Assembly: GCF_009659535.1 (NCBI RefSeq)
Contig: NZ_VJZZ01000008.1
Span: 1-64,000 of the forward strand
DNA length: 64,000 bases
Direction of reading: 5' to 3'
Origin: Aggregicoccus sp. 17bor-14
Lineage (GTDB): Bacteria > Myxococcota > Myxococcia > Myxococcales > Myxococcaceae
A model generated the notes under the pieces. The model was given only the letters and a program-made list of their open reading frames with translations, made no database searches and was not told where the DNA came from. Of the stretch, positions 38,592-60,527 are shown piece by piece. The position numbers and the translations under genes are program-made. Each line of letters begins with the position of its first letter. Position 1 is the stretch's first letter.

Positions 38592-38621
38592 GGTTGGCTC
38601 TCGCTTCCTAAGAGGGGTGGC

Positions 38622-40801: not shown

Positions 40802-43074
<2,273 letters not shown>

Positions 43075-43247
43075 GCGCGGGAGCTCCTGGAGGCTGTGTT
43101 TGAGTCGCGTTTCTCGAAGGCGCGGGGATACTCAGGAACCGGACTCCCTGCGTCAAGGAGTTTGGCCCGGGTGCGCCTTGCCCGCGCTTATCGCTTCCAC
43201 GCGTCGAGAAGGGAACGAATGCGGGCCCGAAAATCGCGCCCGGCGGC

Positions 43248-44708
43248 TCAGGCGCCGAGCAGCGCGCGCAGCGCCACCCGGTCCACCTTGCCCATCGCGT
43301 TGCGCGGCAGCTCCCCCGTCTGCAGGAAGCGGCGCGGCACCTTGTAGCCGGCGAGCCGCGCGCGGCAGAAGGCCTCGAGCGCCTCGGCGCCGGGCCACGC
43401 GTGCCCCTCGCGCAGGGCCACCGCCGCCACCGGCACCTGGCCCCAGCGCGGGTCCGGCACGCCCCCCACCGCCGCCTCGCGCACCGCGGGGTGCGCGGCG
43501 AGCACCGCTTCGATCTCCGCCGGGTACACGTTCTCGCCGCCGCACACGAGCAGGTCCGTGCGCCGCGAGAGCACCGTGAGGCGCCCCTCGGAGTCCAGCA
43601 CGCCCACGTCGCGCGTGCGCAGCCAGCCGTCGCGCAGGGCCTCGCGCGTGGCCTCGGGCTGACGGAAGTAGCCCTTCATCACGGTAGGGCCGCGCACCTC
43701 GATCTCCCCCTCTGCCCCGGCAGGCAGGGGGGCGCCGTCCGCCCCCACCACGCGCAGGGCGAGCCCCGGCAGGGCCCGGCCCGCGTTCTGTCCCGTGGCC
43801 TCGTCCGGGCGCTCGGTCGCCGCCTGGGCGCAGGCTTCGGTCAGCCCGTAGGTCTGCAGCGCGAGCAGGCCGACGGCGCGGGCGCGCGCCACGAGCGGCG
43901 GGGGCACCGGCCCTCCCCCCAGCAGCGCGAGCCGGAAGCTGGGCGGCACGGGTCGGTCCCCGCGCGCGTCGAGCACCCTCTCCAGCGTGGTGGCCACGAA
44001 GCTCGCGTGGCTCGCCCCGTCCTCGTCGATGGCGCGGTTCACTGCCGCGGCGTCGAAGCGCTCGTGCAGGAGCAGCGCCCCGCCCGCGTAGGCGCTGCGC
44101 GTGAGCATGGTGAGGCCGCCCACGTGGAAGAGCGGCAGCAGGCCCAGCCAGCGCGGCGCGGGCCGGGCGCCGAGGTTCGCCGCCGAGGCGCGCGCGGCCG
44201 CGCGGAAGTTTCCCTCCGTGAGCACCGCGCCCTTGGGCACGCCCGTGGTGCCGGAGGTGAAGAGGATGACGCGCTCGGCATCGTCCGTCAGGGCTTCACG
44301 GCGCGCAGAGCCCGGAAGGGCGCGCGCCTCCTCGGCGAGCGCCTCGAGCGACTCGGCCCCGGGGAGTCGCTCTCGCAGTGCTTCGAGCGCCAGCGTGAGC
44401 CGGGGCTGCAGGCGCTGCAGCAGCGGGGAGAGCTCGCTCGCGGTGAGGCGCGCATTCAGCGGCGCCGCCACCGCCCGCAGGCGCCCCAGCGCGAAGAAGA
44501 GCGGAACGACGAGCGGATGGCTGCCGGCGAGCACTGCCACGCGATCGCCCTCCCCCACCCCGCGCCGCTCGAGCAGCGCCGTCCACTGCGCGACGTCGGC
44601 GTCGAGTGCCGCGTAGCTCCAGCGCCGGGCGCCTGCGCTGAGCGCGAGGGCCTCGGGGTGACGCTCAGCGCCCTGGCGGATGGGACAGAGGTGGGGCGTG
44701 GGCGTCAC
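43248..44708 (-). CDS. menE: O-succinylbenzoate-CoA ligase (AMP-dependent synthetase family)
   Basis: AMP-binding motifs (TSGTTGVPKG, YGLTE); GTG start overlaps the menC stop (GTGA); operon context. Confidence 0.7.
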   Translation of the reverse strand: MTPTPHLCPIRQGAERHPEALALSAGARRWSYAALDADVAQWTALLERRGVGEGDRVAVLAGSHPLVVPLFFALGRLRAVAAPLNARLTASELSPLLQRLQPRLTLALEALRERLPGAESLEALAEEARALPGSARREALTDDAERVILFTSGTTGVPKGAVLTEGNFRAAARASAANLGARPAPRWLGLLPLFHVGGLTMLTRSAYAGGALLLHERFDAAAVNRAIDEDGASHASFVATTLERVLDARGDRPVPPSFRLALLGGGPVPPPLVARARAVGLLALQTYGLTEACAQAATERPDEATGQNAGRALPGLALRVVGADGAPLPAGAEGEIEVRGPTVMKGYFRQPEATREALRDGWLRTRDVGVLDSEGRLTVLSRRTDLLVCGGENVYPAEIEAVLAAHPAVREAAVGGVPDPRWGQVPVAAVALREGHAWPGAEALEAFCRARLAGYKVPRRFLQTGELPRNAMGKVDRVALRALLGA

Positions 44709-45763
44709 CGCGGCGGCTCCAGTCCGAGCCCCGGGCCCGGCGGCAATGGGATACGCCCCTGCACGGGCGAATAGGCGTGCACGGGCTCGCCGACGAAGAG
44801 GTGACCCACCGCGAGCCCCGAGGCCAGCGCGCCGGAGGGGAGTGCCGCGGCGAGCTGCGCTGCACCGGCGCGCGCCACCACCCCGTCGAGCGAGCTGGTG
44901 ACGTACGCCTCGAGCCCCCGCGCGGATGCACGCCGGGCGAGCGCGAGCGCCGGCAGAAGTCCGCCGAGGACCATTGGCTTGAGCACCAGCACATCCACGA
45001 CGCGCTCGGCGAGCAGTGCTTCGAGGGCGTCGGGCACGGCGAGGGACTCGTCCGCGGCGAGACGGCACGCGGAATCCGCCGCCACTCTGCGGAAGCCCGC
45101 GAGGTCATCCGCCGCCACGGGCTGTTCGCACAGCTCGAGCCCCAGGGGCTGCAGGCCCGCGAGCGCCTCGAGGGCCTCGTCCGCCGACCAGGCCCCGTTC
45201 GCGTCGACGCGCAGACACACGCGGCTTCCCACGGCCTCGCGCACCACCGAGAGACGGGCGACGTCGTCCGCGCGGCCGACCTTCACCTTGAGGGTGCGAA
45301 AGCCGCGCTGCACGGCGTCGCGCGCCTCGGCAGCGAGCGCCCCTGGCTCGCTTGCGCCGAGTAGCGCATTGACCTCCACTGCGTCACGCGCCGTGGGCGA
45401 GAGCCAGCGCGCAACGGACTCGCCGCGGGCCTGGGCGCCGAGGTCCAGCAGCGCGAGCTCCAGCGCGTGGCGCGCCGCCGAGGGGAGCGCGGTGCCGAGA
45501 GCCGCGGTGATGGCCGCGAGCTCGGGCGCGACGCTCGCGCCCTGGAGCGCCGCGCACGCCTCGCGCAGTGCGCGGCCACAGGCCTCGAGCGACTCGGTGC
45601 CGAACTCGGGCAGGGGCATCGCCTCCCCCTGCCCCACCGCGCCTCCCACCTCGTGCACGCGCAGGACGAAGCCCTCGCGCCGCGCGTAGGCACCGCGCGC
45701 GGTCCGCAGCGGCGTGCGGAACTCCAGCGCGAGCGGCGCGAGCTCGAGGCGCGTCAGCCGCAC
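44705..45763 (-). CDS. menC: O-succinylbenzoate synthase (enolase superfamily)
   Basis: Enolase-superfamily KxK and metal-ligand pattern (LKVKVG, VDANGAW); GTG start. Confidence 0.7.
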   Translation of the reverse strand: MRLTRLELAPLALEFRTPLRTARGAYARREGFVLRVHEVGGAVGQGEAMPLPEFGTESLEACGRALREACAALQGASVAPELAAITAALGTALPSAARHALELALLDLGAQARGESVARWLSPTARDAVEVNALLGASEPGALAAEARDAVQRGFRTLKVKVGRADDVARLSVVREAVGSRVCLRVDANGAWSADEALEALAGLQPLGLELCEQPVAADDLAGFRRVAADSACRLAADESLAVPDALEALLAERVVDVLVLKPMVLGGLLPALALARRASARGLEAYVTSSLDGVVARAGAAQLAAALPSGALASGLAVGHLFVGEPVHAYSPVQGRIPLPPGPGLGLEPPR

Positions 45764-45767
45764 CGGC

Positions 45768-46691
45768 TCACCTCAGGCACAGGCCCACGGCGAAGAGCAC
45801 GCTGTACACCATCTGCAGGCGCGCACTGCCGCCAAGCGCAGGGCCCAGCGCCCCGCCCTCGCCGCGCATGACGAGCCGCAGGGGTGGAAGGGCCGCAGGC
45901 AGCGAGAGCAGCGGCAGCAGCACCCAGCGGCTCGCGAGTCCCAGGGCGAGCATGGCCACCGGCGTGAGGAAGGCGAGCAGGAGCAGCGCCACGTACTCGC
46001 CGCGCCCGGCCGGGATGCCGAAGCGCACGATCAGCGTGCGCTTGTTCGCCTTCGCATCCGTGCGCGCGTCACGCAGGTTGTTCGCGACCAGGATGCAGGT
46101 GCCCAGCGCGCCCACCGGCAGCGCCGCCCACCACGCGGCGGTGCTCACGGAGAGCGCCTGCACGTAGTAGGTGCCCGTCACCGCCACGAGGCCGAAGAAG
46201 ACGAACACGAACACGTCCCCCAGCCCGTTGTACGCGAGGGGGAAGGGCCCGCCCGTGTACGCGTAGCCGCACAGCACCGAGGCGAGGCCGATGGCCACGA
46301 TGGGCCAGCCGCCGATGACGACGAGGTAGATGCCGCTGACGATGGCGAGCGCGAAGCAGCCCAGCGCCGCGGCGAGCACGGTCGAAGGTGCGATGAGCCC
46401 GCTCTGCGTCACGCGCGTGGGCCCGAGCCGCTCGTGCGTGTCCGCGCCCTTCTTGAAGTCGTAGTAGTCGTTCGTGAAGTTGGTGCCGATCTGGATCAGC
46501 ATCGCACCGAGCAGCGCCGCGAGCGCGGGAAGCCAGTGGCCCACGCCCTCGCCGAATGCGAGCCCGGTGCCCACCACCACGGGGGCGGCGGCAGCGGTGA
46601 GCGTCTTGGGCCGGGCGGCCATCACCCAGGTGCCGAGCGTGGGGCGGGGCTTCGCGGAGAGCGTCTGCATCGAGGGAGCGGAAGAGGTCAT
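45768..46691 (-). CDS. menA: 1,4-dihydroxy-2-naphthoate polyprenyltransferase
   Basis: UbiA-family NDYYDFKKG motif, multi-TM; start trimmed to ATG 46691. Confidence 0.8.
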   Translation of the reverse strand: MTSSAPSMQTLSAKPRPTLGTWVMAARPKTLTAAAAPVVVGTGLAFGEGVGHWLPALAALLGAMLIQIGTNFTNDYYDFKKGADTHERLGPTRVTQSGLIAPSTVLAAALGCFALAIVSGIYLVVIGGWPIVAIGLASVLCGYAYTGGPFPLAYNGLGDVFVFVFFGLVAVTGTYYVQALSVSTAAWWAALPVGALGTCILVANNLRDARTDAKANKRTLIVRFGIPAGRGEYVALLLLAFLTPVAMLALGLASRWVLLPLLSLPAALPPLRLVMRGEGGALGPALGGSARLQMVYSVLFAVGLCLR

Positions 46692-46702
46692 GGGCTGTGG
46701 GG

Positions 46703-47544
46703 TTAGGAGGCGCGCACGCTGACGGCGGCCGGTTCGAACTCGGCCGGCGCTTCGTACCAGGGCGTCTGCAGGAAGGAGAGCACCTCGCGCGCGTACACCT
46801 CGGGGGCCTCCAGGTGCGGCGCGTGGCCGCAGCCCGCGAGCGCGTGGCGCCACACCACCGGGAGGTCCGCGGCCATGCGGCGGGCAATCTGCGTGAACTT
46901 CGCGTCCTGCGCGCCCGTGAGCAGCAGCGTGGGCAAGCGCTGGCGGTGCAGGCTGGGCCAGTAGTCCGGCTGCGCACCGAGGCCGAGGCACTCCAGCGCG
47001 CCCGCCAGTCCCTCCGCGTTGCCACTGCCGCGGCGCGCGCGCAGAGCCTGCTGCAGCGCGGGCGGCAGCTGGCGCAAGCCGTCGAAGAGCGGCAGCGCCT
47101 CCCAGCGCTCGACGAAGGCCTCCACGCCCTGGGTGCGGATGAAGGCCGCGAGCTTCGCGTCCGCGAGCCGTCGCTCGGCGCGCTCCTGGCGACGGTGCAG
47201 GCCCGGCGAGCCGCTCTCCATGATGAGCCGTCCGAAGCGCTCCGGTGCCCGCACCGCGAGGGCCAGCGCGAGCCGCGCGCCCTGCGAGTAGCCCAGCAGG
47301 TCCACCGAGGGGTGGCCCAGGCGCGTGACGAGCGCGAGCAGCGCCTCCACCGTCTCGATGAAGCCGTCGCGCCCCGTACGGGTGGGCAGCGGCGTCTCGC
47401 CGTGGCCGGGCAGGTCCACCGCGATGGCTCGAATGGAGGGGCCGAGCAGCGGGCGCAGGTGATCGAACGCGCTGCGGTTGCCCGTGAAGCCGTGCAGCAG
47501 CAGCAGCGGCCGCGTCCCCTCGCCCCACGTCTCGTACGCCAGCG
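46703..47544 (-). CDS. menH: 2-succinyl-6-hydroxy-2,4-cyclohexadiene-1-carboxylate (SHCHC) synthase, alpha/beta hydrolase
   Basis: HGFTG and GYSQGAR nucleophile-elbow motifs; position between menD and menA. Confidence 0.7.
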
Positions 47545-49305
47545 TCACGCCCATGGTCCGTCTCCCAGTGCGGCTGCCATCTTCGCGAACAGCGCGCGGT
47601 GTGCCTCGACGTTGCCGCCGCGCTCGGTGCGCACCTCCACCAGGTGCAGCCCGCCCTCGAGTCCCGCCTGCACCGCGGCGCGCAGGGCGCCCGGCGTGGC
47701 GGGGCGCTCGAAGCGGGCGCCGTACAGCGCCGCCGCGTGCGCGAGGTCCACGCCGTGCGGCGTGCCGAACAGCGGCTCGAAGTGGCGGGTGGTGCCGGCG
47801 AGCGGCAGGAAGCTGAAGATGCCGCCGCCGTCGTTGTTCACCACGACGACGGTGAGCGACACGCCCTGGCGGCGCGCCGTGAGCAGTCCGCCCACGTCGT
47901 GCAGGAAGGCGAGGTCTCCGGTGAGCAGCGCGGTGGGCCGCCCGGAGGAAGCCGCTGCGCCGAGCGCCGTGGACACGATGCCGTCGATGCCGTTCGCCCC
48001 GCGGTTCGCGAGCACGCGCAGCGCGGCGCCGGAGGCGGGCGCGAAGGCGTCCACGTCCCGGATGGGCATGCTGCTGGAGATGAAGAGCTGGGCGCCGGCC
48101 GGTAGCGCCGCCACGACCTCGCGCGCCACCCGCGGCTCGCTCAGGTCCTGCTGCGCGGCGAACGCCGCCTCGAGTGCGCCGAGGGCGCGTCGCTCCGCCT
48201 GCTGGAAGCTGGAGGCCCAGGCCCCGAGGCCTCGCGAGAGGCCCTGCGCGAGCGCGCGTGCGGCGAGCACCGCGGAGCCCTCGAGGATGCGCGAGGCGCG
48301 GTGCGCGGGGTCCACCAGCGCGCCCTCGTCGCTGAAGAGCACGACGTCCGCGCCCGACGCGTCCAGCCAGGCCTGCGGCACTTTCGGCGTGAGCCCTCCG
48401 CCGAAGCGCAGGACCACGTCGGGACGGTGCGCCTGCGCAAAGGGCGGATGGCGCAGCAGCGCGTCGTAGAGCGAGAGCACAGGAGCGCCGCTGCCGCCGA
48501 AGCGCACCTGGGAGCTCGCCTCGGCGAGCACCGGATAGCCGCTCGCGCGCGACAGCACTTCGATGGCCTCGCGAAAGCCGTCCTCCGCATCGCGCGGTCC
48601 GCACACGATGACGCCGCGCGGCTTCGCCTCCACGAGCGCACGCACCTCGGCGAGCGCGGCCGCGTCCGGCGCGCGCGCGGACTGCAGGATGCGCACGAAG
48701 GGCTGAGCGCCCCTCCCCTCGCGGGCGAGCGGCGCGAGGCGCTCCTCGCCGAAGGGCTCGGGCACCGGCGCGAGCGGCTCGCGCAGCGGGACGTTGAGCT
48801 GCACGGCGCCGCGGGGGGCGCGCAGCGAGGTGGCCACCGCGCGCGCCGCCGTGGCGCGCAGGTGCGCGAGGGAGACCGTGGTGGCCTCGGGCAGACCCAC
48901 GTCCGCGTACGCGCGCGCGAAGTCTCCGAAGAGGCGCGCCTGCGGGATGGTCTGCGGTGCGCCCCAGCCCTGCAGCTCGAGCGGACGGTCCGCGGTGAGC
49001 ACCACCAGGGGCACGCCCGTCATCGCGGCCTCGATGACGGCCGGGTAGAAGTGTGCGCCCGCCGTGCCGCTGGTGGCGACCAGCAGCGCCGGGGCACCGC
49101 TCTCCTTCGCGAGGCCCAGAGCGAAGAAGCCCGCCGAGCGCTCGTCGATGACCGACCACAGCCGCAGCCCCGGCACCTCCGCGCAGGCAAGCGCGAGCGG
49201 CGTGGACCGAGAGCCCGGGCACACCACCGCCTCGCGCGCGCCGCCGCGCACCAGCTCCTCCACCAGCGCGCGGGCCCAGAGCTGATTCAGGTTCGCGTCA
49301 GACAT
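47545..49305 (-). CDS. menD: 2-succinyl-5-enolpyruvyl-6-hydroxy-3-cyclohexene-1-carboxylate (SEPHCHC) synthase, ThDP-dependent
   Basis: ThDP-binding GDLAFLHD...NNDGGGIF motif, 586 aa. Confidence 0.85.
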
Positions 49306-50617
49306 TCGCCTCTCCGAGCGCGCGCCGCATGGCCACGCCCTTGATCTCCGTCTCGCGCCACTCGGCCGCGGGGTCCGAGCCGCGCACGATGCCCGCCCCC
49401 ACGAAGAGCCGCGCCCGCGCGCCCTCCACCAGCGCCGAGCGCAGCGCCACTACCAGGTGCGCGCGCCCCGGCCCCACCCAGCCCACCGGCCCCGCGTACC
49501 AGCCGCGATCCAGCGCCTCGTGCTCGCGCAGGAAGTGCAGCGCGCGCTCGCGAGGGCTGCCGCCCACCGCGGGCGTCGGGTGCAGCGCGGACACCAGGGC
49601 CGCGGGGCCCACACCCTCCTTCAGCTCCGCCTCGATGCCCGTACGCAGGTGCACCACGTTCTTCAGCGCGAGCAGCGCGGGCGCTTCGTCCGCGTGCACC
49701 GCGCTGGACAGCGGCGCGAGCGCCTCGCGGATGCCGTCCACGACCGAGCGGTGCTCGCGCAGGTCCTTGTCGCTTCCCGCGAGCGCCCCCGCCTGCGCGG
49801 GCGACGCCGAGCCCGCGAGCGCCTCGGTGCTCAGGCGGGCGCCCTCCATGCGGCACAGCGTCTCGGGCGTCGCCCCCACGAAGGCGGTGCCGCCCGGCGC
49901 GCGCAGCAGGAAGGTCGCGCAGCGCGGGTTCTGCTCGCGCAGCCGCGCGAGCACGTCCACCAGAGAGAAGGGCTGCTCGGCCTGGGCGTCGATGGCGCGC
50001 GCCATCACCACCTTCTGCAACGCCCCCGACCCGATGGCCTCGAGCGCCCGGCTCACCCGCGCCTCGAAGCCCTCGCGCGAGGAGCGCAGCTGCAGGTGCT
50101 GCGCGCCTTCTCTGGCGTGCCGGTACCGCTCTGGAAAGGCATTGCGCACGCGCTCGAGGCGCGAGCGCACCCGGTCCTCGCCGCCCGCGTCCTCCGGGGC
50201 GAAGGCCGCGGCGCGCAGGCCGCCCTCCACACGCCACACCAGCAGCTCGGGCAGCACCCAGCGCCCGTGGCCGAAGCTGTCCCAGCCCAGCGCGCCGCCC
50301 GCGTAGTCGGGCCCCTGCGAGGCCGCGAAGCGCATGCCGCCGAACCACGGACCGGGCATCGCCTCGGCCGCACCGCCCAGCCAGCGCACCGCGCCATCCG
50401 AGGCGAGCGCCTCGAGCACGCGCAGGGCGCCCGCGGCGTCGTCCGCGCCGACGGCCGCTGCCTCGCCCCACCCTGCGGCCGCCTCCTGCGCGAGCGGGCG
50501 CTCCCAGTATACCGAGGGCAGCCCCAGCACGTCCGCGCCCGCGAGCGGATCCACCGCGGGCAGGGACAGGGTCCCGGCCACGTAGCGGCGTCCGTCAAGC
50601 GGAGTGTGCGTCGTCAT
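49298..50617 (-). CDS. menF: Isochorismate synthase
   Basis: Chorismate-binding fold ([15 protein letters not shown]); overlaps the menD start by 8 nt. Confidence 0.8.
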
Positions 50618-50657
50618 CAGCGGTCCTCATGGGCGGGCTGGCCCGCGTCACCATCGG

Positions 50658-50685
50658 TTGTCTTCTATTCCAATCCGGCTATACA
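50658..50685 (+). promoter_or_regulatory. Candidate sigma70-type promoter (TTGTCT-16 nt-TATACA) for the aro/menG operon
   Basis: Only AT-rich stretch in the 118-nt divergent intergenic region. Confidence 0.35.
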
Positions 50686-50696
50686 TGCATCACGGA

Positions 50697-50723
50697 GTTC
50701 AAAACGGCTTGAACTCGTTGAAC
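50697..50723. promoter_or_regulatory. Inverted repeat GTTCAA-6 nt-TTGAAC plus a third TTGAAC direct repeat, between the -10 element and the DAHP synthase start
   Basis: Read directly: gTTCAAaacggcTTGAACtcgTTGAACtgg. Confidence 0.4.
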
Positions 50724-50734
50724 TGGAGCGACCG

Positions 50735-51652
50735 GTGAGCGGCAAGCGGGCAGACGACACGCAGGTGAGCGGGGGCGGCAAGGTCCGCGACCCGGGACCG
50801 CGGCTCGTCTGGCGCGAGGCCCATCCGGAGGACACCCGCGTGCGCGTGGGCACGCAGGGGCTGGAGATCGGCGGCGCGGGCTTCGTGGTGATGGCGGGCC
50901 CCTGTGCGGTGGAGGGCGTGGAGCAGACCGAGACGGCGGCCGCCGCGGTGGCGCGCTCGGGCGCGCACCTGCTGCGCGGCGGCGTCTTCAAGCCGCGCAC
51001 CAGCCCCTACGCGTTCCAGGGCATGGGCGAGCCGGGCCTGCGCATCCTCGCCGAGGCGGGGCGCAAGAACGGGCTCCCGGTCATCAGCGAGGTGATGGAC
51101 ACCGCGCAGATCCCGATGATGCTCGAGCACGCGGACGTGCTGCAGGTGGGCGCGCGCAACATGCAGAACTTCGCGCTGCTGCGGGCGCTGGGCAAGGTGA
51201 GGAAGCCCGTGCTGGTGAAGCGCGGCCTCTCCGCCACGGTGCAGGAGTGGTTCCTCGCCGCGGAGTACCTGCTCGCGGGCGGCAACGAGCAGGTCATCCT
51301 GTGCGAGCGCGGCATCCGCACCTTCGAGACCGAGACGCGCAACACGCTGGATCTCGCGGCGGTGGCGCTCGCCAAGCAGCGCACGCACCTGCCCGTCATC
51401 GTGGACCCCTCGCACGCGACCGGCAACGCGGACCTCATCCTGCCCATGGCCCTGGCGGCCGTGGCGGCGGGCGCGGACGGGCTGCTCATCGAGGTGCACC
51501 CGCGCCCCGAGCAGGCCCTGTGTGACGGCCACCAGGCCCTCACCCCCGAGCGCTTCGACGCCGTGATGCGGCGGCTGCCGCCCATCCTCGCGGCGATGAA
51601 CCGACACCTCACGCGGCCGGTGCAGCCGGCCCACGCAGCGGGAGCCCGATGA
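50735..51652 (+). CDS. 3-deoxy-7-phosphoheptulonate (DAHP) synthase, class I-beta, without a regulatory domain
   Basis: GPCAVEG...KPRTSPY...GARNMQNF...[11 protein letters not shown]...IVDPSHA motifs; GTG start with GGAG Shine-Dalgarno 6 nt upstream. Confidence 0.75.
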
Positions 51653-52341
51653 GCACCGAAGTGCGCCAGATGTTCTCCTCCATCGCCACGCGCTACGACG
51701 TGACGAACGAGGTCCTGTCTTTCGGCATCCACCGCCTGTGGCGCCGCAAGGCCATCCAGCTCTCGGGCGCGAAGCCGGGCGACGCGGTGCTCGACTGCGC
51801 CACCGGCACGGGTGACCTGGCCATCGCCTTCAAGCACACCGTGGGCGGCGACGGGCGCGTGGTGGGCACGGACTTCTGCCCCGAGATGCTCGACAGCGCG
51901 CCGGCGAAGGCCTCGCGCGAGGGGCTGGAGATCGAGTTCGCGGTCGCCGACGCGATGGACCTGCGCCAGTACGCGGACGCCACCTTCGACGTGGCCTCCA
52001 TCTCCTTCGGCATCCGCAACGTGGATGACCCGGTGAAGTGCCTCAAGGAGATGGCCCGGGTGGTGAAGCCGGGCGGGCGCGTGGTGGTGCTGGAGTTCGG
52101 CCAGCCGCGCGGGCTCTTCGGCGGCCTCTTCCGCTTCTACAGCAAGGTGCTGATGCCCTTCGTGGGCGGCCTGATCACCGGCAACCGCGCCGCCTACGAG
52201 TACCTGCCGCGCACGGCCGCCGCCTTCCCCGCGGGCGAGAAGTTCCTCGAGCTGATGGACCGCTCGGGGGCCTACCGCAAGCGTGCGGCGCACCCGCTCA
52301 CGTTCGGGACGGCCTACGTGTATGTCGGCACGGTGCGCTGA
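51649..52341 (+). CDS. ubiE: Demethylmenaquinone/ubiquinone C-methyltransferase
   Basis: [19 protein letters not shown]...[12 protein letters not shown] motif; start overlaps the DAHP synthase stop (ATGA). Confidence 0.85.
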
Positions 52342-52381
52342 GGGGCCTCCCCCTTCCCTCTCCGGGGACGTCGCGCACCTC

Positions 52382-52945
52382 GTGAGCGCGGTGCTCGACG
52401 CGGTGGACCCGCGGCTCGCGCCCGCGCTGCGCGAGGAGCTCGCCCGGCCAGGCGCCGCGCTCGCGCCCGCCGCCACCCAGACCCTGGCCATCGCCGGCCA
52501 CCGCGCCGCGGGCAAGACGCGGCTGCTGCCGCTGCTCTCGGCCCTCACCGGGCGCCCGGGCGTGGACCTGGATGCCGAGCTCGCGCGCCAGCACGGCCGC
52601 GCGCTGCGCGACTGGGTGCGCGAGGACGTGGCGGGTTTCCGCGCCGCCGAGCGCGCCGCCTTCGCGCAGCTTCCGCCCGGCTCGCTCGTGGCGCTGGGCG
52701 GGGGCTTCCTCTCGCACCACCCGGACGCGCTCGCCGGCACCTTCACGGTGCTGGTGCCCCTGAGCGCGGAGACCTACCGCGAGCGCCTCCTGGCGGACCG
52801 CGAGCGGCCGCGGCTGCGTCCCGAGCTGAGCCTCGAGGAGGAGATTTCCCGCGTCTGGGCCGAGCGCGAGGCGCTGCACGCGCGCGTGCCCACCGTCCCG
52901 CTCGTGCACCTGCTGCGCGCGCTGCTGCCCCCGAGGTCCGCGTGA
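52382..52945 (+). CDS. aroK: Shikimate kinase (start codon uncertain: GTG 52382, ATG 52322 or GTG 52403)
   Basis: P-loop IAGHRAAGKT, LID/GGG region LVALGGGFL; stop overlaps the aroDE GTG start (GTGA). Confidence 0.55.
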   Translation: MSAVLDAVDPRLAPALREELARPGAALAPAATQTLAIAGHRAAGKTRLLPLLSALTGRPGVDLDAELARQHGRALRDWVREDVAGFRAAERAAFAQLPPGSLVALGGGFLSHHPDALAGTFTVLVPLSAETYRERLLADRERPRLRPELSLEEEISRVWAEREALHARVPTVPLVHLLRALLPPRSA

Positions 52946-54177
52946 GCTCCTGCCGCGTCGTCACCCTTCCTCCCTCGGTGCGCGCAGAGGCGGCCCGCCT
53001 CTTCGCCGAGGAGGCGCGCCGCCGCGGCGCACAGCTGCTCGAGCTGCGCACGGACCTGCACCACGATGCGGACGTGGACGCGGGCGCCCTCGCCCGCGTG
53101 CTGCCCCTGCTCGTGTCCGAGCGCGGCGCGCCCGTGCCACCGCGCTGGCTTCAGGCCGCACGGCTCGTGGACCTCCCGGTGGAGGGGGCGCTGGAGGCAG
53201 GCGGGCCGCAGCTGCTCGCCTCGCACCACGCGGAGCGTCCGCTCATGACGGAGGAGGCGCTGCAGCTCTGGGCGCGCCCGCTGCCGCCCGGGGCGCAGGT
53301 GAAGCACGTGGAGCCCCTCGGCGCTCCTTCGCGCTTACCCGAGCTGCTCGAGACGCAAGCCCGGCTCGTGGCCCGCTTCGGCGAGGGCCGGGTGACGGTG
53401 CTCGCGATGGGGCCGCTCGCCCTGCCGGTGCGCGCGGTGCTCGCGGTGCACAACACGCTCGACTACGTGGCGGCGGGCGGCGCCTGGAGCGCCGCGGTGG
53501 GGCAGCGCCTGCTCGAGGACGTGGTGCGCGAGAGCGCGCGCGGCGCCGGTGGCCTTCGCCGCGGCATCCTCGGCACCGGCATCGCGCACTCCCGCTCGCC
53601 GCGCATCCACCGCCAGCCCTTCGATCGCATCGACCTTCCGGAGGACGCGGACGTGGAGGCGCTGGTGGACGCGCTGCGGCCCCACTACGCGGGCTTCGCC
53701 ATCACCAGCCCCTTCAAGAAGCACCTCGCGCGGCACGCGGGCAGCGCGCTCGAGGCGGTGAACACGCTGGTGCGCCGCGGCGAGCGCTGGGAGGCCTTCA
53801 ACACGGACCACGAGGGCGCCCGCGAGGTGCTGCAGCGGCTGCGCGTCTCCGAGGCCTTCGTGCTCGGAGACGGCGGGGCGAGCGCGGCGCTGCGCGCGGT
53901 GGCCCCAGAGGTCGGGACGGCACTGCGGGTGCTGCGGCGCGCGGACGTGGACGCGCCCCTGCGCGGCGCGGGCGTGTGGACCTGGCCCGAGCGCGTGGAG
54001 GTTCCCCCGGGCCTGCGCTTCGAGGGAGCGCGCGTGGCGGTGATCGCCTACGGTGCTCCGGGCCGGCGCATCGCCGCGGAGATCCGCCGCCGCGGCGGGG
54101 AGCCCGTGCCCCTGGGCGCGGCCTGGTTCGTCGCGCAGGCCCGCCGGCAGCGCAGCCTCTGGGAGACCGCCACATGA
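52942..54177 (+). CDS. Bifunctional type I 3-dehydroquinate dehydratase-like domain / shikimate dehydrogenase fusion
   Basis: N-terminal LELRTDL...VKHVEP (type I DHQase-like); C-terminal GILGTGIAHSRSPRIH and NTDHEG (AroE motifs). Confidence 0.55.
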   Translation: MSSCRVVTLPPSVRAEAARLFAEEARRRGAQLLELRTDLHHDADVDAGALARVLPLLVSERGAPVPPRWLQAARLVDLPVEGALEAGGPQLLASHHAERPLMTEEALQLWARPLPPGAQVKHVEPLGAPSRLPELLETQARLVARFGEGRVTVLAMGPLALPVRAVLAVHNTLDYVAAGGAWSAAVGQRLLEDVVRESARGAGGLRRGILGTGIAHSRSPRIHRQPFDRIDLPEDADVEALVDALRPHYAGFAITSPFKKHLARHAGSALEAVNTLVRRGERWEAFNTDHEGAREVLQRLRVSEAFVLGDGGASAALRAVAPEVGTALRVLRRADVDAPLRGAGVWTWPERVEVPPGLRFEGARVAVIAYGAPGRRIAAEIRRRGGEPVPLGAAWFVAQARRQRSLWETAT

Positions 54178-55193
54178 ACACGCTGGGTACCCTCTTCCGC
54201 CTCACCACCTTCGGCGAGAGCCACGGCGTGGCGCTGGGCGCCGTGGTGGACGGCTGCCCCGCCGGAGTGCCGCTCGAGACGGCCGACATCCAGCGCGCGC
54301 TCGACCGGCGCCGCCCCGGTCAGTCGGCCCTCACCACGGCGCGCGCCGAGGCGGACCAGGTGGAGATCCTCTCGGGCGTCTTCGAGGGGCGCACCCTGGG
54401 CACGCCGCTTGCCGCCATCGTGCGCAACCAGAACCAGCGCTCGCAGGACTACGACGCACTCAAGGCGCAGGATCGGCCGGGCCACGCGGATGCCGTGTGG
54501 CGCGAGCGCTTCAAGCACCGCGATCACCGCGGTGGCGGGCGCACCAGCGGCCGGGAGACCCTCTGCCGCGTCATCGGCGGCGCGGTGGCGGAGGCCTACC
54601 TCGCGCAGGCGCTGCCCTCCTTGCGCACCGTGGCGTGGGTGAGCCAGGTGGGCCCGCTCGCCGCAGCGCCCCCCTCGGTGGGGCTCACGCGCGCCCAGGT
54701 GGATGCGCACGCGACGCGCTGCCCCGACCCGGTGGCCGCCGAGCAGATGGCCGCGCGCATCCTCGCCGCGAAGCAGGCGGGTGACAGCCTCGGCGGCGCC
54801 ATCGACTTGCGCATCGAGGGGCTGCCCGTGGGGCTCGGCGAGCCCATCTTCAGCAAGCTCAAGAGCCTGCTCGCGCACGCCATGGGCAGCGTGGGCGCGG
54901 TGACGGGCGTGCTCTGGGGGCCGCCCGACTTGATGACCCGCCTCGAGCAGCCGGGCACCGTCTTCCACTCCGGGAAGGACACCTACGGCGGCATCCAGGG
55001 CGGGCTCGCCAACGGAGAGCCGGTGGAGCTGCGGGTGCTCTTCAAGCCGCCTGCGACGCTGCTGGACCACGCCAAGGCGGGCCGTCACGACCCCTGCATC
55101 CTGCCGCGCGCCGTCCCGGTGCTCGAGGCGATGGCCTCCCTCGTGCTCGCGGACCTGCACCTCCACCTCGACGCCCGCCCGCACCACGCATGA
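54174..55193 (+). CDS. aroC: Chorismate synthase
   Basis: FGESHG, RPGHAD, GGGRTSGRET signatures; ATGA overlap with the upstream gene. Confidence 0.9.
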   Translation: MNTLGTLFRLTTFGESHGVALGAVVDGCPAGVPLETADIQRALDRRRPGQSALTTARAEADQVEILSGVFEGRTLGTPLAAIVRNQNQRSQDYDALKAQDRPGHADAVWRERFKHRDHRGGGRTSGRETLCRVIGGAVAEAYLAQALPSLRTVAWVSQVGPLAAAPPSVGLTRAQVDAHATRCPDPVAAEQMAARILAAKQAGDSLGGAIDLRIEGLPVGLGEPIFSKLKSLLAHAMGSVGAVTGVLWGPPDLMTRLEQPGTVFHSGKDTYGGIQGGLANGEPVELRVLFKPPATLLDHAKAGRHDPCILPRAVPVLEAMASLVLADLHLHLDARPHHA

Positions 55194-56260
55194 GCCCGCT
55201 CCCGCCTGGCGCCTACCGCCCCGCCGAGGACCGCTGGGGCCCCTTTCCCCGGCTCGCGCGCGCGCTGCCCGAGGGCAGCCTCGTCGTGGTGGACCGCAAG
55301 GTGGCGCGCCTGCATCCCGCGCTCATGACGGCCCTGCGCGCGCGGGAGCCCCGCGCGGTCGTGCCGCTCACCGGCGGCGAGGGCGCGAAGAGCTTCCGTG
55401 CGCTGGAGCAGGTGCTCGCCGCGGGCCTCACCCTGCCCCGCTCCGGCACGCTGCTCGCCATCGGCGGCGGCACCGTGGGGGACGTGAGCACGGTCGCCGC
55501 GCACCTGCTCAAGCGCGGCGTGCGCCTGGTGCAGGTGCCGAGCACGCTGCTCGCGGCGGTGGACAGCAGCCTCGGTGGCAAGGGCGCGGTGGACCTCACG
55601 GTGCGCGGGCGTGTGGTGAAGAACCCCGCGGGCGTCTTCCACTACGCGGACGAGGCCTGGGTGTGCCCGGAGCTGTTCACCACGCTGACGGATGCCCAGC
55701 GGCGCGAGGGGGCCATCGAGGCCTGGAAGATGGTGGTCTGCCTCGACGCCGCCCTCTTCGCGCGCTACCTGCGCCGCCCGCCTGCCCTGCCCGCGCTGGT
55801 GCGCGACGCGCGCCGGCTCAAGGAGAGCGTCTGCGCGCAGGACCCCTACGAGCAGTCGGGCCTGCGGCGCGTGCTCAACTTCGGCCACTCCTTCGGCCAC
55901 GTGCTGGAGAGCCTCAGCGCCTTCCGCCTCTCGCACGGAGACGCCGTGGGGCTCGGCATGCTGTGCGCGCTGGACGCGGGCCGCGCGCTCGGGGTGACGC
56001 CTCCCGAGGTCGCCACGCAGGTGGAGGAGGCGCTCACGCAGAAGGTGGGCGTGCTGGGCCGCGCGGCGCTCGCGCGCTTCGCCCGCCGGGGCACGCCCGG
56101 GGAGGTGCGGGCCCTGCTCGCGGCGGACAAGAAGGCGGGCGCCGCGGGGCAGCTGCGCATGGTGCTGCTCACGGGCGTGGGGAGCACCTGCGTGAGGGAC
56201 GTGGAAGAGGCCGCCTGGCGCGCGCTGTGGCCCGCGTGGACCCGCGAGGTGCGGCCGTGA
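55190..56260 (+). CDS. aroB: 3-dehydroquinate synthase
   Basis: GGGTVGD NAD motif and metal-binding His residues (FGHSFGH). Confidence 0.85.
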   Translation: MSPLPPGAYRPAEDRWGPFPRLARALPEGSLVVVDRKVARLHPALMTALRAREPRAVVPLTGGEGAKSFRALEQVLAAGLTLPRSGTLLAIGGGTVGDVSTVAAHLLKRGVRLVQVPSTLLAAVDSSLGGKGAVDLTVRGRVVKNPAGVFHYADEAWVCPELFTTLTDAQRREGAIEAWKMVVCLDAALFARYLRRPPALPALVRDARRLKESVCAQDPYEQSGLRRVLNFGHSFGHVLESLSAFRLSHGDAVGLGMLCALDAGRALGVTPPEVATQVEEALTQKVGVLGRAALARFARRGTPGEVRALLAADKKAGAAGQLRMVLLTGVGSTCVRDVEEAAWRALWPAWTREVRP

Positions 56261-57522
56261 CCGTCCTGCGGGTGGATCCCTCCGCTCTCCAAGCGGCGCA
56301 GCTCACCCCGCCGCTGTCCAAGTCGGACGCGCAGCGCGCGCTGGTGCTCGCCCACCTCTCGGGCGCTCGCACGCTGGAGGGCCTCGAGTCGGAGCCGGTG
56401 GAGTCCTTGCCCGCGGACGTGCGCACGCTGCTGCGTGGGCTCGACGCACTGCGCCTGCCGCCCGGCCCCCGGCGCGAGCTGGACTGCGCCGACGGAGGCG
56501 CGCCGTTCCGCATCCTCCTCACCCAGGCAGCGACGACGCCGGGCTTTCGCGGCGGCTTCCGCGGCACGCCGCGGCTGGGCGAGCGCCCCCACGCACCACT
56601 GCTCGAGGCGCTGCGCGAGGCGCTGGGGCCGGTGGGGCTTCGGCTCGAGGAGGGACGGCCCTGGCCGCTGGAGCTGTGGGCGCCGCAGGACAGCGTGGGT
56701 GCCCCTCCCCGCTTCCGCGTGCGTTCGGAGCAGAGCAGCCAGTACGCCTCGAGCCTCCTGCTGGGCGCGGCCGCGCTGTACCTGCGCGAGCGGCGCCCGT
56801 GGAGCGTGGAGCTGGAGGGAGGGCTCACCAGCCCGGGCTACCTCGAGCTCACGCTCGCGTGGATGGCGCGCTTCGGCTTCGACGTGCGCCGCGAGCCCGG
56901 CCGGCTCACGGTGACGGGACACACGCCGCCCGCGCAGCTGCCCGCGCTGCCCGGCGACTGGTCCTCGCTGGGCTACCTGTTGCTCGTGGCGTGGCGCTCC
57001 GGCGGCAGCGTGGAGCGCGTGGACCTGGCGAGCGCGCAGCCGGACCAGGCCCTGCTCGAGATCGTGCGCGAGGCCGGGCTGCGCACGGCCTCGCCGGCCC
57101 CGGGCGTGCTGCGGCTGGAGGGTGAGGCCCTGCGCGGCGTGCGCGCCTCGGGCACGCGCTGCCCCGACCTGCTGCCCACGCTGGCCGCGCTCGCGATGGT
57201 GCTGCCGGGCCCCTCGGTGCTCTCGGACGTGGGCGTGCTGCGGCTCAAGGAGAGCGATCGCCTCGAGGGCATCCGCGCGCTCGTCTCGGCGTTCGGCGGC
57301 AGCAGCGCGCTCGAGGGCGAGGGGCTGACGCTGCAGGCCCCGGCCTCGCGCCCCGCGCACTTCGAGGTGGACAGCCGGGAGGACCACCGCCTCGCGATGT
57401 CCGCGGCCACCCTCAGCGTGCTCTCCGGGGTGCCGCTCACGCTGCACGGGCCGGAGTGCGTGGCGAAGAGCTTTCCGGGCTTCTGGACGCAGCTTCAGCG
57501 CACCGGCGTGCGCCTCACGTAG
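56257..57522 (+). CDS. aroA: 3-phosphoshikimate 1-carboxyvinyltransferase (EPSP synthase)
   Basis: LPxSKSDAQR N-terminal motif; GTG start overlapping the aroB stop. Confidence 0.85.
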   Translation: MTVLRVDPSALQAAQLTPPLSKSDAQRALVLAHLSGARTLEGLESEPVESLPADVRTLLRGLDALRLPPGPRRELDCADGGAPFRILLTQAATTPGFRGGFRGTPRLGERPHAPLLEALREALGPVGLRLEEGRPWPLELWAPQDSVGAPPRFRVRSEQSSQYASSLLLGAAALYLRERRPWSVELEGGLTSPGYLELTLAWMARFGFDVRREPGRLTVTGHTPPAQLPALPGDWSSLGYLLLVAWRSGGSVERVDLASAQPDQALLEIVREAGLRTASPAPGVLRLEGEALRGVRASGTRCPDLLPTLAALAMVLPGPSVLSDVGVLRLKESDRLEGIRALVSAFGGSSALEGEGLTLQAPASRPAHFEVDSREDHRLAMSAATLSVLSGVPLTLHGPECVAKSFPGFWTQLQRTGVRLT

Positions 57523-57894
57523 CGGCGCCACAGGCGCGGCCCGTAGGTGAGCACGAGCAGCAGCGCGCCGGCGCAGAGCACCTGCACGAGCGCGCGCCGC
57601 TCGGCGCCGGCCACGCCCGCGACGAGCAAGAGGGCCCGCCGGCCGCCCCCTCGGCGTTCGCGTTTTTCAACGGTGATCGAAGCGGGGCTCATGGGCCACG
57701 CAACCTCGCGGAAAGGGACGGCTTTCCGGAGGCGCTCGCGCCGTCCTGGCAGGCGACCGTGCAGGCGGGGCCCCGCGGGAGGGGCGCAAAGTACCCCGCG
57801 GATGTCAGCGCGTGTGCAGCGCGACTGTCGCTCGTTGCCGCAGTGCGCCCTTTTTTAGTTGAAAGCTTTGAGGGCCATGTGAAATCTCCCGCCC

Positions 57895-59205
57895 ATGCCC
57901 AAGGACACGCTGACGATCACGGACAATCGGACCGGCAAGACCTATGAGGTCCCGATTGAGGACGGCTGCATCCGCACCAAGGCGCTCAATCAGATCAAGG
58001 TGGATGAGAACGACTTCGGGTTGATGGGATACGACCCGGCGTTCCTCAACACGGCGAACTGCAAGAGCGCCATCACGTACATCGATGGTGACAAGGGCAT
58101 CCTCGAGTACCGGGGCTACCCCATCGAGCAGCTGGCGGAGAAGTCGACCTTCCTCGAGGTCGCCTACCTGCTGCTCAACGGCGAGCTGCCCACGCCCAAG
58201 GAGCTCGAGCAGTTCATCCACCTCGTCACGCACCACACGTACGTGCACGAGAACATCAAGACCTTCATGGACGGGTTCCGCTACGACGCGCACCCCATGT
58301 CCATCCTCTCGTCCACCGTCGCGGCGCTCTCGGGCTTCTACCCGGACGCGAAGCACACCAAGGACGAGCGCAGCCGCCGCATCCAGATGACCCGGCTCAT
58401 CGCGAAGATGCCGACCATCGCGGCCTTCAGCTACCGCCACAGCCTCGGTCTGCCGTACGTCTACCCGAACAACGACCTGAGCTACGTCGGCAACTTCCTC
58501 GCGATGATCAAGAAGATCGGCACCACCAACTACAAGGTGGACCCGGTCCTCGAGCGCGCGCTGGACGTGCTCTTCATCCTGCACGCGGACCACGAGCAGA
58601 ACTGCAGCACCACGTCGGTGCGCGTGGTCGGCTCCTCGGAAGTGGACCCCTACTCCGCCTGCGCCGCGGGCATCACCGCGCTCTACGGCCCGCTGCACGG
58701 CGGCGCCAACGAGGCCGTGCTGCGCATGCTGCGCGAGATCGGCCACATCTCGAAGGTCCCCGAGTTCATCCGCCAGGTGAAGAGCGGCGAGGCCGGCAGC
58801 CGCCTGATGGGCTTCGGCCACCGCGTCTACAAGTCCTACGACCCGCGCGCGAAGGTGATCAAGCGCGTGGCGGACGAGGTCTTCGAGGTGACGGGCAAGA
58901 ACCCGCTGCTCGAGATCGCCGTCGAGCTCGAGCGCATCGCGCTGCAGGACGAGTACTTCGTGAAGCGCAAGCTGTACCCGAACGTCGACTTCTACTCGGG
59001 CCTCATCTACGAGGCGATGGGCTTCCAGGCGGAGATGTTCCCCGTGCTCTTCGCCATCCCGCGCACCGTGGGCTGGGTGAGCCAGTGGGAGGAGATGGTG
59101 AAGGATCCCGAGCAGAAGATCGCCCGCCCGCGCCAGGTGTACACGGGCGCGAAGCGCCGCGACTACCTGCCCAACGAGAAGCGCGGCCAGGGCGGCGCCC
59201 GCTAG
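57895..59205 (+). CDS. gltA: Citrate synthase (type II, hexameric-type)
   Basis: GFGHRVYK and HADHEQN catalytic signatures. Confidence 0.9.
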   Translation: MPKDTLTITDNRTGKTYEVPIEDGCIRTKALNQIKVDENDFGLMGYDPAFLNTANCKSAITYIDGDKGILEYRGYPIEQLAEKSTFLEVAYLLLNGELPTPKELEQFIHLVTHHTYVHENIKTFMDGFRYDAHPMSILSSTVAALSGFYPDAKHTKDERSRRIQMTRLIAKMPTIAAFSYRHSLGLPYVYPNNDLSYVGNFLAMIKKIGTTNYKVDPVLERALDVLFILHADHEQNCSTTSVRVVGSSEVDPYSACAAGITALYGPLHGGANEAVLRMLREIGHISKVPEFIRQVKSGEAGSRLMGFGHRVYKSYDPRAKVIKRVADEVFEVTGKNPLLEIAVELERIALQDEYFVKRKLYPNVDFYSGLIYEAMGFQAEMFPVLFAIPRTVGWVSQWEEMVKDPEQKIARPRQVYTGAKRRDYLPNEKRGQGGAR

Positions 59206-59352
59206 GCGCACGGGAGCCCCCGGGCTCCCTGCCGAGCAGGTCCTGAAGGGGTGGGTGCCCACGGGGCGCTCACCCCTTCGCCTTTGCGGGGGCAAACGCC
59301 GCACGGCGGCGTTGACAGCGCGCGGGGTGCTGAGTATCTCGCGCACCGCGCC

Positions 59353-59730
59353 ATGACCATCGACTTCACGTGCCAGAAGTGCGAGGCCAGCTTCGAGCTG
59401 GACGCCCAGGACCTCATCGACGGGACCGAGAAGCTGGTGTGCCCGCACTGTGATGCGAAGGCGCCCGCCGCGCTCGCCGCGGACTTCACCGCTGCCCTGG
59501 CCGAGATGCGCCTCCAGATCGCCACGCTCGGCAAGAAGGCCTTCTCCGTGAGCCTCGCGCTCGAGACCGAGGACGTGGAGGAGGAGGTCGACGCGGACGA
59601 CGACGAGGACGAGTCGGACGAGGACGCCGACGCGGACGAGGACCTCGAGTTCGACGAGGACGACGAGGACGAGTCGGACGACGACGACGAGGACGAGGAC
59701 TATGACGAGGAGGACAGCGAGGAGCCCTGA
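59353..59730 (+). CDS. Zinc-ribbon (CxxC...CPHC, FmdB-like) protein with a ~55-residue poly-Asp/Glu C-terminal tail
   Basis: CQKCEASF...CPHCDAK; the tail is ~85% D/E; candidate TTGACA-17 nt-TATCTC promoter at 59312-59340. Confidence 0.5.
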   Translation: MTIDFTCQKCEASFELDAQDLIDGTEKLVCPHCDAKAPAALAADFTAALAEMRLQIATLGKKAFSVSLALETEDVEEEVDADDDEDESDEDADADEDLEFDEDDEDESDDDDEDEDYDEEDSEEP

Positions 59731-60523: not shown

Positions 60524-60527
60524 AAAA

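Follow-up and report, generated by a model that had tools for sequence, protein, structure and literature searches.

A 64,000-nt stretch of the genome of Aggregicoccus sp. 17bor-14 (Myxococcaceae), hereafter the window, carries 13 genes of menaquinone and chorismate synthesis in two divergent sets, six on the minus strand (50617 down to 43248) and seven on the plus strand (50735–57522), and we hold with good but not complete confidence that they form a chromosomal menaquinone cluster joined head-to-head to a complete shikimate operon and that they work in the manner set out below. The minus-strand genes, menF-menD-menH-menA-menC-menE, would supply six of the steps that lead from chorismate to demethylmenaquinone (isochorismate through o-succinylbenzoate (OSB)-CoA, plus prenylation); on the plus strand, 3-deoxy-D-arabino-heptulosonate 7-phosphate (DAHP) synthase, aroK, an aroD-aroE fusion, aroC, aroB and aroA would together make chorismate, with ubiE/menG encoding the final methyltransferase. 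Annotations for the individual genes of the cluster already exist in reference genomes (in Myxococcus xanthus the matched locus tags are MXAN_3521–3527), and its basic existence is no surprise; men operons, aro operons, AroD-AroE fusions and divergent promoter regions are likewise known kinds of arrangement. What is new is the gene combination, the stepwise loss of menB, a cryptic dehydroquinase domain and a candidate operator-regulator pair, and we found no description of this men/shikimate cluster in the literature searched.

Because the G+C content of the window is 68–76%, most of its long open reading frames (ORFs) are spurious; reading frames were therefore picked by third-position G+C and by family matches (Pfam, NCBIfam), and starts by inspection of start codons. 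The first minus-strand gene is menF (isochorismate synthase, 439 aa; 49298–50617), which has an ATG start with a GAGGA ribosome-binding site and matches Pfam Chorismate_bind and TIGR00543 (307 bits, cutoff 225). It is followed by menD, encoding 2-succinyl-5-enolpyruvyl-6-hydroxy-3-cyclohexene-1-carboxylate synthase (586 aa; 47545–49305; TIGR00173, 462 bits, cutoff 244), menH, encoding 2-succinyl-6-hydroxy-2,4-cyclohexadiene-1-carboxylate synthase (283 aa; 46703–47554; TIGR03695, 249 bits, cutoff 209), menA, encoding 1,4-dihydroxy-2-naphthoate (DHNA) polyprenyltransferase (307 aa; 45768–46691; Pfam UbiA and NF004751, 360 bits, cutoff 264), menC, encoding o-succinylbenzoate synthase (352 aa; 44705–45763; Pfam MR_MLE_C and MenC_N, and TIGR01927 at 133.3 bits against a cutoff of 130.6), and menE, encoding o-succinylbenzoate-CoA ligase (486 aa; 43248–44708; TIGR01923, 343 bits, cutoff 330). 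The NCBIfam models used are of the subfamily type for MenF and of the equivalog type for MenD, MenH, MenC and MenE. The plus-strand set begins with a DAHP synthase of the type I-beta core class (305 aa; 50735–51652; NF006421, 419 bits, cutoff 335), which has a GTG start with a GGAG ribosome-binding site, and continues with ubiE/menG, the demethylmenaquinone methyltransferase (230 aa; 51649–52341; TIGR01934, 226 bits, cutoff 158; NF001244, 223.5 bits, cutoff 216), and aroK, a divergent shikimate kinase of about 187 aa (Pfam SKI, 47 bits) at about 52382–52945, the start of which is uncertain (alternatives at 52322 and 52283). Then come the aroD-aroE fusion (411 aa; 52942–54177), whose product is 100% identical to a protein of strain 17bor-14 and which was identified by motifs, a structure model and a profile search against Protein Data Bank (PDB) sequences; aroC, chorismate synthase (339 aa; 54174–55193; NF003793, 351 bits, cutoff 321); aroB, 3-dehydroquinate synthase (356 aa; 55190–56260; Pfam DHQ_synthase and DHQS_C, and TIGR01357 at 207 bits, below the cutoff of 305); and aroA, 5-enolpyruvylshikimate-3-phosphate synthase (421 aa; 56257–57522; Pfam EPSP_synthase, 120 bits, and TIGR01356 at 188 bits, below the cutoff of 287). 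Judged by Pfam, NCBIfam and start codons, the coordinates, gene list and gene names given in an earlier note on this DNA, which had been made from the letters alone, are correct; the region between the two sets, put there at 118 nt, is 117 nt long (50618–50734).

That note had also read tight translational coupling at nearly every junction. This holds for the plus strand, where five of six junctions are 4-nt ATGA or GTGA overlaps (ATGA between DAHP synthase and ubiE and at the starts of aroC and aroB, GTGA at the start of aroA), the sole non-overlapping one being ubiE/aroK, with a gap of 40 nt in the window; in 12 related loci the distance from the ubiE stop to the first aligned residue of aroK is 13–16 nt. 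For the minus strand it is overstated: menF and menD overlap by 8 nt, menD and menH by 10 nt (4 nt if menH starts at the GTG at 47548), gaps of 11 nt and 4 nt separate menH from menA and menA from menC, and the GTGA at menC/menE is the sole certain 4-nt overlap (one or two of five junctions). The gene calls of M. stipitatus have the same 4-nt overlaps. Each side would be transcribed into one polycistronic mRNA, on which the translation of overlapping genes would be coupled.

The arrangement is conserved far beyond chance. A pattern scan of one genome per species yielded 80 loci, all of Myxococcaceae/Archangiaceae type; gene orders in the fetched loci were established by tblastn with the window proteins. 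The full set of 13, in unchanged order and orientation, is found in 28 fetched related loci, menH adjoins menA in 38, and the complete aroK-aroDE-aroC-aroB-aroA block is present in 62. The comparison across relatives that the earlier note had proposed thus came out in favor of a kept gene order, and the 28 loci include M. xanthus by matched genes. Supplementary tables for M. xanthus DK1622 list aroB as MXAN_3521, aroC as MXAN_3522, ubiE as MXAN_3525 and menF as MXAN_3527 (supplements including PMC6791715 and PMC9548883).

Several loci weigh against regarding the cluster as invariant. Deletions have removed DAHP synthase from the clusters of Cystobacter fuscus and of certain Hyalangium and Archangium genomes (loci L007, L036, L054 and L067), and in Archangium minus (L023) it is reduced to fragments; in Hyalangium versicolor (L004) ubiE is absent and about 5 kb is inserted between menD and menF; and in L006 ubiE is internally deleted, with the promoter/repeat region described below present in two copies. 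Where DAHP synthase is deleted, the promoter would drive ubiE directly. In a further locus (L008) there is no menF, menE or DAHP synthase match at the cluster site.

All six men genes, DAHP synthase, ubiE and aroC score above their NCBIfam cutoffs. The presence of MenF, MenD, MenH, MenC and MenE in one cluster, with MenA and MenG/UbiE likewise, assigns it to the classical (o-succinylbenzoate) pathway. One might nevertheless suppose that the product is not respiratory menaquinone but a secondary metabolite of the naphthoquinone type, since myxobacteria are rich in secondary-metabolite clusters and a missing menB is atypical of a primary men operon. We regard this as scarcely credible: the men enzymes, MenA and the methyltransferase included, all pass equivalog cutoffs, the cluster is universal in the family and set among genes of the tricarboxylic acid (TCA) cycle (sucCD, sdhAB, mdh, icd, gltA), no polyketide synthase, nonribosomal peptide synthetase or tailoring genes are adjacent, and the siderophore myxochelin of M. 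xanthus has isochorismate synthase and DAHP synthase genes of its own (PMC9548883).

As the earlier note had held, a complete chorismate pathway lies beside the men genes. All seven shikimate steps are represented by a family match or, for AroD, by motifs and structure, with DAHP synthase and AroC passing their cutoffs. Four gene products belong to the right family and score below the NCBIfam cutoff: AroK (40 against 161 bits), AroE (61 against 235), AroB (207 against 305) and AroA (188 against 287). AroK keeps its P-loop, GHRAAGKT, and the DLD, GGG and RP motifs. The men and aro genes alike show a compositional skew, with G+C at first and second codon positions (GC1 and GC2) of ∼0.8 and ∼0.55, as compared to ∼0.6 and ∼0.4 in the flanking TCA-cycle genes (42001–58000 versus flanks), and their median identity to relatives is 52–80%, versus 87% for the neighboring gltA. 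Because the skew extends over the whole cluster and its genes evolve faster than their neighbors, the low aro scores look like general divergence rather than loss of function, and the divergent aro genes look like functional ones, as far as activity can be read from sequence.

The most divergent of these is the 411-aa product of the aroD-aroE fusion, whose N-terminal 205 residues have no Pfam match, DHquinase_I included, even at E = 1. We assign a type I dehydroquinase domain to residues ∼1–200 and a shikimate dehydrogenase domain to residues ∼206–411. In an alignment of 21 orthologs, the N-terminal domain has invariant E34/R36/D38, H95/H96, K121, R164 and Q188, lying in the motifs ELRTDL, SHH, VKHVEP and PGQ, and the C-terminal domain invariant S217/S219, K259, N287/D289 (NTD), G309-D310-G311-G312 (GDGG) and Q399, the set expected of a shikimate dehydrogenase with its substrate-binding serine pair, catalytic Lys and Asp and glycine-rich dinucleotide loop. 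An AlphaFold model of high overall confidence (predicted local distance difference test score 88.8) folds residues 4–200 into eight beta/alpha units, the TIM barrel of a type I dehydroquinase; the sixth strand bears K121, in the place of the Schiff-base lysine, and the fifth ends in H95/H96, in that of the general-base histidine. Its best Foldseek matches over both domains are the Arabidopsis dehydroquinase-shikimate dehydrogenase (DHQ-SDH) structures 2gpt, 2o7q and 2o7s (template modeling score 0.71–0.74), followed by fungal AROM, stand-alone AroE and Salmonella AroD (3m7w); the profile search of PDB sequences also placed Arabidopsis DHQ-SDH and fungal AROM in register, and retrieved AroE structures down to E = 3e-12. 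With hhalign, an approximate E. coli AroD query aligned only over the ELRTDL/EWRVDH motif; because sequence alignment failed beyond this point, the equivalence of the dehydroquinase residues is drawn from strand position in the model. The invariant catalytic motifs and a confident model nearest to Arabidopsis DHQ-SDH bear out the fusion that the earlier note had called. Domain order and two-domain fold are those of plant DHQ-SDH, bacterial AroDE (NF006802) and the corresponding module of fungal AROM, and the catalytic Lys and His of type I dehydroquinase and the Lys and Asp of shikimate dehydrogenase are conserved. The 411-aa protein is, however, much shorter than proteins of this type (∼500 residues), is only ∼19–20% identical to those structures and scores 28 bits against NF006802, whose cutoff is 598; in the pattern scan the fusion was met only in Myxococcaceae-type genomes. 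A dehydroquinase domain so compact and divergent escapes standard models, and reconstructed pathways could then show this step as missing when it is present.

The same divergence bears on whether the aro block could be a second, menaquinone-dedicated shikimate copy, with a canonical housekeeping set elsewhere supplying the aromatic amino acids. The AroK, AroE, AroB and AroA scores fall well below cutoff, the dehydroquinase domain is undetected by Pfam, DAHP synthase has been lost from the cluster in some genera, and M. xanthus has further enzymes of the pathway: two DAHP synthases, aroF (MXAN_6061) and a class II enzyme in the myxochelin cluster (MXAN_3642) (PMC9548883), besides the one in the men/shikimate cluster (MXAN_3526 by position), and, in addition to the dehydroquinase within the fusion, which is of type I, a 924-nt gene with a class II dehydroquinase annotation (MXAN_1400). 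A second aroB, aroK, aroE, aroA or aroC was not seen in the searched M. xanthus tables, which are incomplete, so that a second aro set, which the earlier note had named as an observation that would make this one redundant, is represented there by these three extra genes and not by the other steps. Moreover, wherever enough sequence was available (62 loci) the aro block is whole, even in lineages in which it is unlinked to men, the catalytic residues of aroDE are invariant, and the men genes are equally skewed in GC1 and GC2, so the divergence looks like a regional composition effect. We therefore consider a dedicated second copy quite unlikely, and prefer to read the block as the shikimate operon proper.

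Dedication to quinone synthesis may apply to the DAHP synthase itself. Its match covers positions 70–336 of the 338 in NF006421, and because some 70 N-terminal positions are missing, the enzyme lacks the N-terminal regulatory domain. In this it resembles the core type I-beta enzymes of Pyrococcus furiosus and Aeropyrum pernix, which likewise have neither a ferredoxin-like nor a chorismate-mutase regulatory domain; such core-only enzymes are described as unregulated. Judging from domain content, the enzyme in the window would supply carbon to quinone synthesis without feedback inhibition, while other DAHP synthase paralogs, of the kind seen in M. xanthus, would serve other branches. A dedicated role of this sort would explain its loss in some genera.

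The classical men operons of E. coli (menFDHBCE) and Bacillus subtilis (menFDHBEC) encode these enzymes too, in an order that differs little (menF-menD-menH ... menC/menE) and with close packing on a single strand. The Aggregicoccus cluster differs from them in that menA lies inside the operon, menB has been excised, leaving the 11-nt menH/menA gap (46692–46702, minus strand), and the operon is paired divergently with DAHP synthase-ubiE and a full shikimate operon. Deeper relatives within the Myxococcaceae keep menB after menH, as the classical operons do. Shikimate genes are also found with a chorismate-consuming branch, and with overlapping junctions, in the aro-trp supraoperon of B. subtilis, and clustered aro genes are known from mycobacteria (aroC-aroK-aroB-aroQ); set against these, the present cluster differs in having seven steps in one unit, menaquinone rather than tryptophan as the branch, and a divergent promoter as the link.

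Intermediate arrangements among the relatives suggest how the cluster was assembled. Two deeper lineages known from metagenome-assembled genomes (MAGs; L073 and L079) share the divergent layout of the Aggregicoccus cluster but carry menB at the menH/menA junction. In L082, L084 and L085, DAHP synthase, with or without ubiE, faces menF-D-H-B-A-C-E and the aro block is not adjacent; in L088 and L089 menF-D-H-B-A-C-E is followed by a polyprenyl synthase gene and a MarR-family gene; and in L074–L078 and others the aro block occurs without men genes nearby. Because DAHP synthase-ubiE facing menF is widespread (L082, L084, L085) and the aro block also stands alone (L076), the block was probably appended downstream of ubiE. 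The earlier note had placed menG inside the aro operon; ubiE does lie between DAHP synthase and aroK, but the likely history is the reverse, the aro block having probably joined DAHP synthase-ubiE. We thus regard as likely a history in which a core of DAHP synthase-ubiE facing menFDHBACE(-polyprenyl synthase-MarR) first gained aroK to aroA and then lost menB, the synthase and the regulator, and it is likely that these losses, to other loci, fell in the cultured ("crown") genera. A single family thereby offers a clear evolutionary series: at one end is a men core that still has menB and a linked regulator, at the other a cluster in which men and shikimate genes are fused and from which menB and the regulator are gone.

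The loss of menB is the most readily followed of these steps. We found no MenB in the 64-kb window by tblastn with two MenB queries, the sole crotonase-like match being a FadB-type gene at 3562–5715 with 30% identity. menB lies between menH and menA in L062, L073, L079, L082, L084, L085, L088 and L089, and the in-cluster MenB of the deeper lineages is 69–77% identical to an approximate E. coli MenB sequence; with identity of this order, a copy in the window would not have been missed. menB has been lost from the menH/menA junction in the cultured genera. The 120 closest database relatives of the in-cluster MenB of L073, with at least 82% identity, all come from MAGs or metagenomes. In M. xanthus MXAN_3154, at 3.695 Mb, is annotated as DHNA-CoA synthase, ∼407 kb from the cluster at 4.10–4.11 Mb (PMC6791715, PMC9548883); its product has 297 aa, as compared to 272–275 aa for the in-cluster MenB, and its neighbor on one side is MXAN_3153, an ethanolamine ammonia-lyase gene. 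The earlier note's statement that menB is absent from the cluster and encoded elsewhere is thus borne out, as to the absence by the window and as to the other location by a distant gene in the model species, and in the literature searched we found no description of the location of menB in Myxococcus.

A DHNA-CoA thioesterase had also been noted as missing from the cluster. In L076 (7368–7856), and also in L069, L071, L074 and L075, a 4HBT (hotdog) thioesterase gene lies ∼1.5 kb upstream of the stand-alone aro block, on the opposite strand, adjoining a TetR-family gene and a metallophosphoesterase gene. It is a possible candidate for the DHNA-CoA thioesterase. A search with the L076 protein as the single query found no homolog in the window.

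The region from which the two gene sets diverge has a spacer length of ∼110–135 nt and a core that are kept across genera; in alignments its menF-side half is variable and its DAHP synthase-side half strongly conserved. The latter contains a putative sigma-70-like promoter, TTGTCT-16 nt-TATACA (50659–50686, plus strand), which is conserved across genera and faces DAHP synthase. Ten nucleotides past TATACA, in the DAHP synthase leader, is a tripartite repeat, GTTCA-N8-TGAAC-N4-TGAAC (50697–50723, plus strand), which we regard as a candidate operator and which is followed in turn by the GGAG ribosome-binding site and the GTG start of the gene. The loose palindrome GTTCA-N(6–10)-TGAAC matches once in the window (0.05 matches expected by chance) and is present in 54 of the 85 fetched loci; matches in L051 and L053 were rejected as their flanks are unrelated. 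The exact tripartite form has 23 matches in 1.5 Mb of loci, all of them in leaders and oriented toward the downstream gene. These leaders are of three kinds, those of DAHP synthase or ubiE (deep lineages included), of aroK (L076) and of an operon of polyprenyl synthase and a GbsR/MarR protein, and outside the half-sites they share no sequence. A LexA-type box was considered and rejected: the site reads GTTC-N10-GAAC, which is neither GAAC-N4-GTTC nor the reported Myxococcus LexA box.

Since the repeat lies downstream of the −10 box, it would be transcribed, and one could envision it as a structure of the 5′ leader RNA, with stabilizing or alternative hairpins that control the ribosome-binding site, rather than as a protein operator. 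The computed fold of the leader in the window, at −17.6 kcal/mol, includes a hairpin of 8 bp, and the third repeat runs directly up to the GGAG ribosome-binding site; in L088 and L089 the element lies in the last part of menE and is followed within a few nucleotides by the start codon of polyprenyl synthase. However, the z-score of the fold is only −1.4. In the intergenic region Rfam has no match, its sole hits in the window being two tRNAs, and the arms keep their sequence rather than changing in compensating pairs. Spacing is fixed at 8 and 4 nt while the spacer sequence varies, as is typical of protein half-sites, and the element co-occurs with a winged-helix regulator gene in five of five operons examined. 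On balance an RNA element seems unlikely, although appreciable enough to be kept in mind, and we favor the repeat as a protein-binding site.

The candidate for that protein is the GbsR/MarR family member just mentioned. Each of the five complete polyprenyl synthase-MarR operons examined (L082, L085, L086, L088 and L089) is preceded by the repeat; in a Pyxidicoccus locus (L086) this operon is unlinked to men genes, and in Aggregicoccus the ortholog of the regulator, P0358 (63% identity), is on another contig. The protein has a match to Pfam MarR_2, and both NCBI and JGI call it GbsR/MarR. The occurrence of one repeat in front of both the cluster and the polyprenyl synthase-GbsR/MarR operon suggests a shared menaquinone regulon, and from neighborhood and motif distribution we infer that the repeat may be the operator of the GbsR/MarR protein, which would also regulate itself. 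Bound to the repeat, the protein would coordinate the genes for the head group, for chorismate supply and for the prenyl tail. A site directly upstream of the regulator's own operon agrees with the autoregulatory layout usual in this family, as generally described; unlike a simple palindrome, it has three half-sites. Expression in M. xanthus offers a further observation: ubiE (MXAN_3525) and the polyprenyl synthetase gene MXAN_3678, which at 999 nt has the same length as the gene in L086, belong to the same developmental group (group 8), and both rise two- to threefold. Three points count against this interpretation, namely that the repeat and the protein are linked only by gene neighborhood, that MXAN_3678 is equated with the regulator-linked synthase only by annotation and length, and that the sole arm substitution (A to G in the left arm, in the Archangium group) keeps a G-U pair and breaks the DNA palindrome, as the RNA alternative would have it. 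Whether the Myxococcaceae have a dedicated menaquinone regulon, under an autoregulated GbsR/MarR protein with a three-half-site operator, and whether the in-cluster menB (272 aa) was replaced by a distant menB of 297 aa in the cultured genera, are taken together a proposal that we put forward tentatively, with its chances somewhat under even. We found neither a menaquinone-linked GbsR/MarR member nor such control in the literature searched; together, a defined DNA element and a named regulator family give a specific and testable hypothesis of how transcription of the menaquinone genes might be controlled.

It could still be argued that the two gene sets are mere inherited neighbors under separate regulation, which would leave the term supra-operon, used in the earlier note, functionally empty. 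RNA-seq data on M. xanthus development place aroC in group 1, ubiE in group 8 and menF in group 10 (supplements including PMC6791715); menF rises about twofold, and aroC falls and then partly recovers (PMC6791715). The differing groups argue against one simply regulated transcript per side. The promoter, at 8 of 12 consensus positions, is under the 9-of-12 threshold of our scan, and the scan of 42900–58000 for sigma-70 and terminator consensus sequences found nothing, neither ends for the units nor a menF promoter; folding downstream of menE and aroA gave no convincing terminator (z-scores −0.45 and −1.37). In addition, the conserved promoter and repeat face DAHP synthase only, the menF-proximal spacer is not conserved, and the aro and men blocks are apart in deeper lineages (L074–L078, L082, L085). 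Against mere neighborhood stand the conservation of spacer length and core across genera, the fact that DAHP synthase-ubiE faces menF even in lineages without an adjacent aro block, and the occurrence of the repeat also before two further kinds of operon, that of polyprenyl synthase and the free-standing one of aroK (L076), a sign of common control. We judge it distinctly improbable that the two sets are unconnected in function. The co-regulation that had been proposed thus remains plausible through the conserved promoter and repeat in the shared region, and is qualified by the separate expression groups of menF, ubiE and aroC in M. xanthus.

The genes that surround the cluster are largely those of central metabolism. 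On the minus strand, at 35482–43104, lie sucD (read by eye), sucC, sdhB, sdhA, mdh and icd, and on the other side, at 57895–62105, are gltA and the genes for a zinc-ribbon protein, a BFN-domain nuclease and pyruvate kinase. gltA, icd, mdh and sucC are found beside men genes in deeper relatives too, and in L088 and L089 the men cluster abuts genes for a 2-oxoacid:ferredoxin oxidoreductase and complex I. The spacer between aroA and gltA (57523–57894) is 372 nt long, as compared to 76 nt in M. stipitatus; a minus-strand ATG at 57692 opens an ORF that reads into the end of aroA and is probably not a gene.

Farther from the cluster, the window carries an encapsulin shell gene (Linocin_M18; 23020–23883), preceded by a gene for EncFtn-like/rubrerythrin cargo (22513–22983). 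MXAN_3556 of M. xanthus belongs to the same Pfam family (PF04454; PMC9548883). Two minus-strand tRNA-Met (CAT) genes with identical Rfam scores (17096–17170 and 18405–18481) flank a plus-strand gene for a BNR/Asp-box repeat protein (17319–18347). Finally, the FadB-type gene met in the search for MenB belongs to a minus-strand operon of fatty-acid beta-oxidation (3562–8174): Pfam identifies its product as an enoyl-CoA hydratase/3-hydroxyacyl-CoA dehydrogenase, and the other genes were read by eye as those of a thiolase and an acyl-CoA dehydrogenase.

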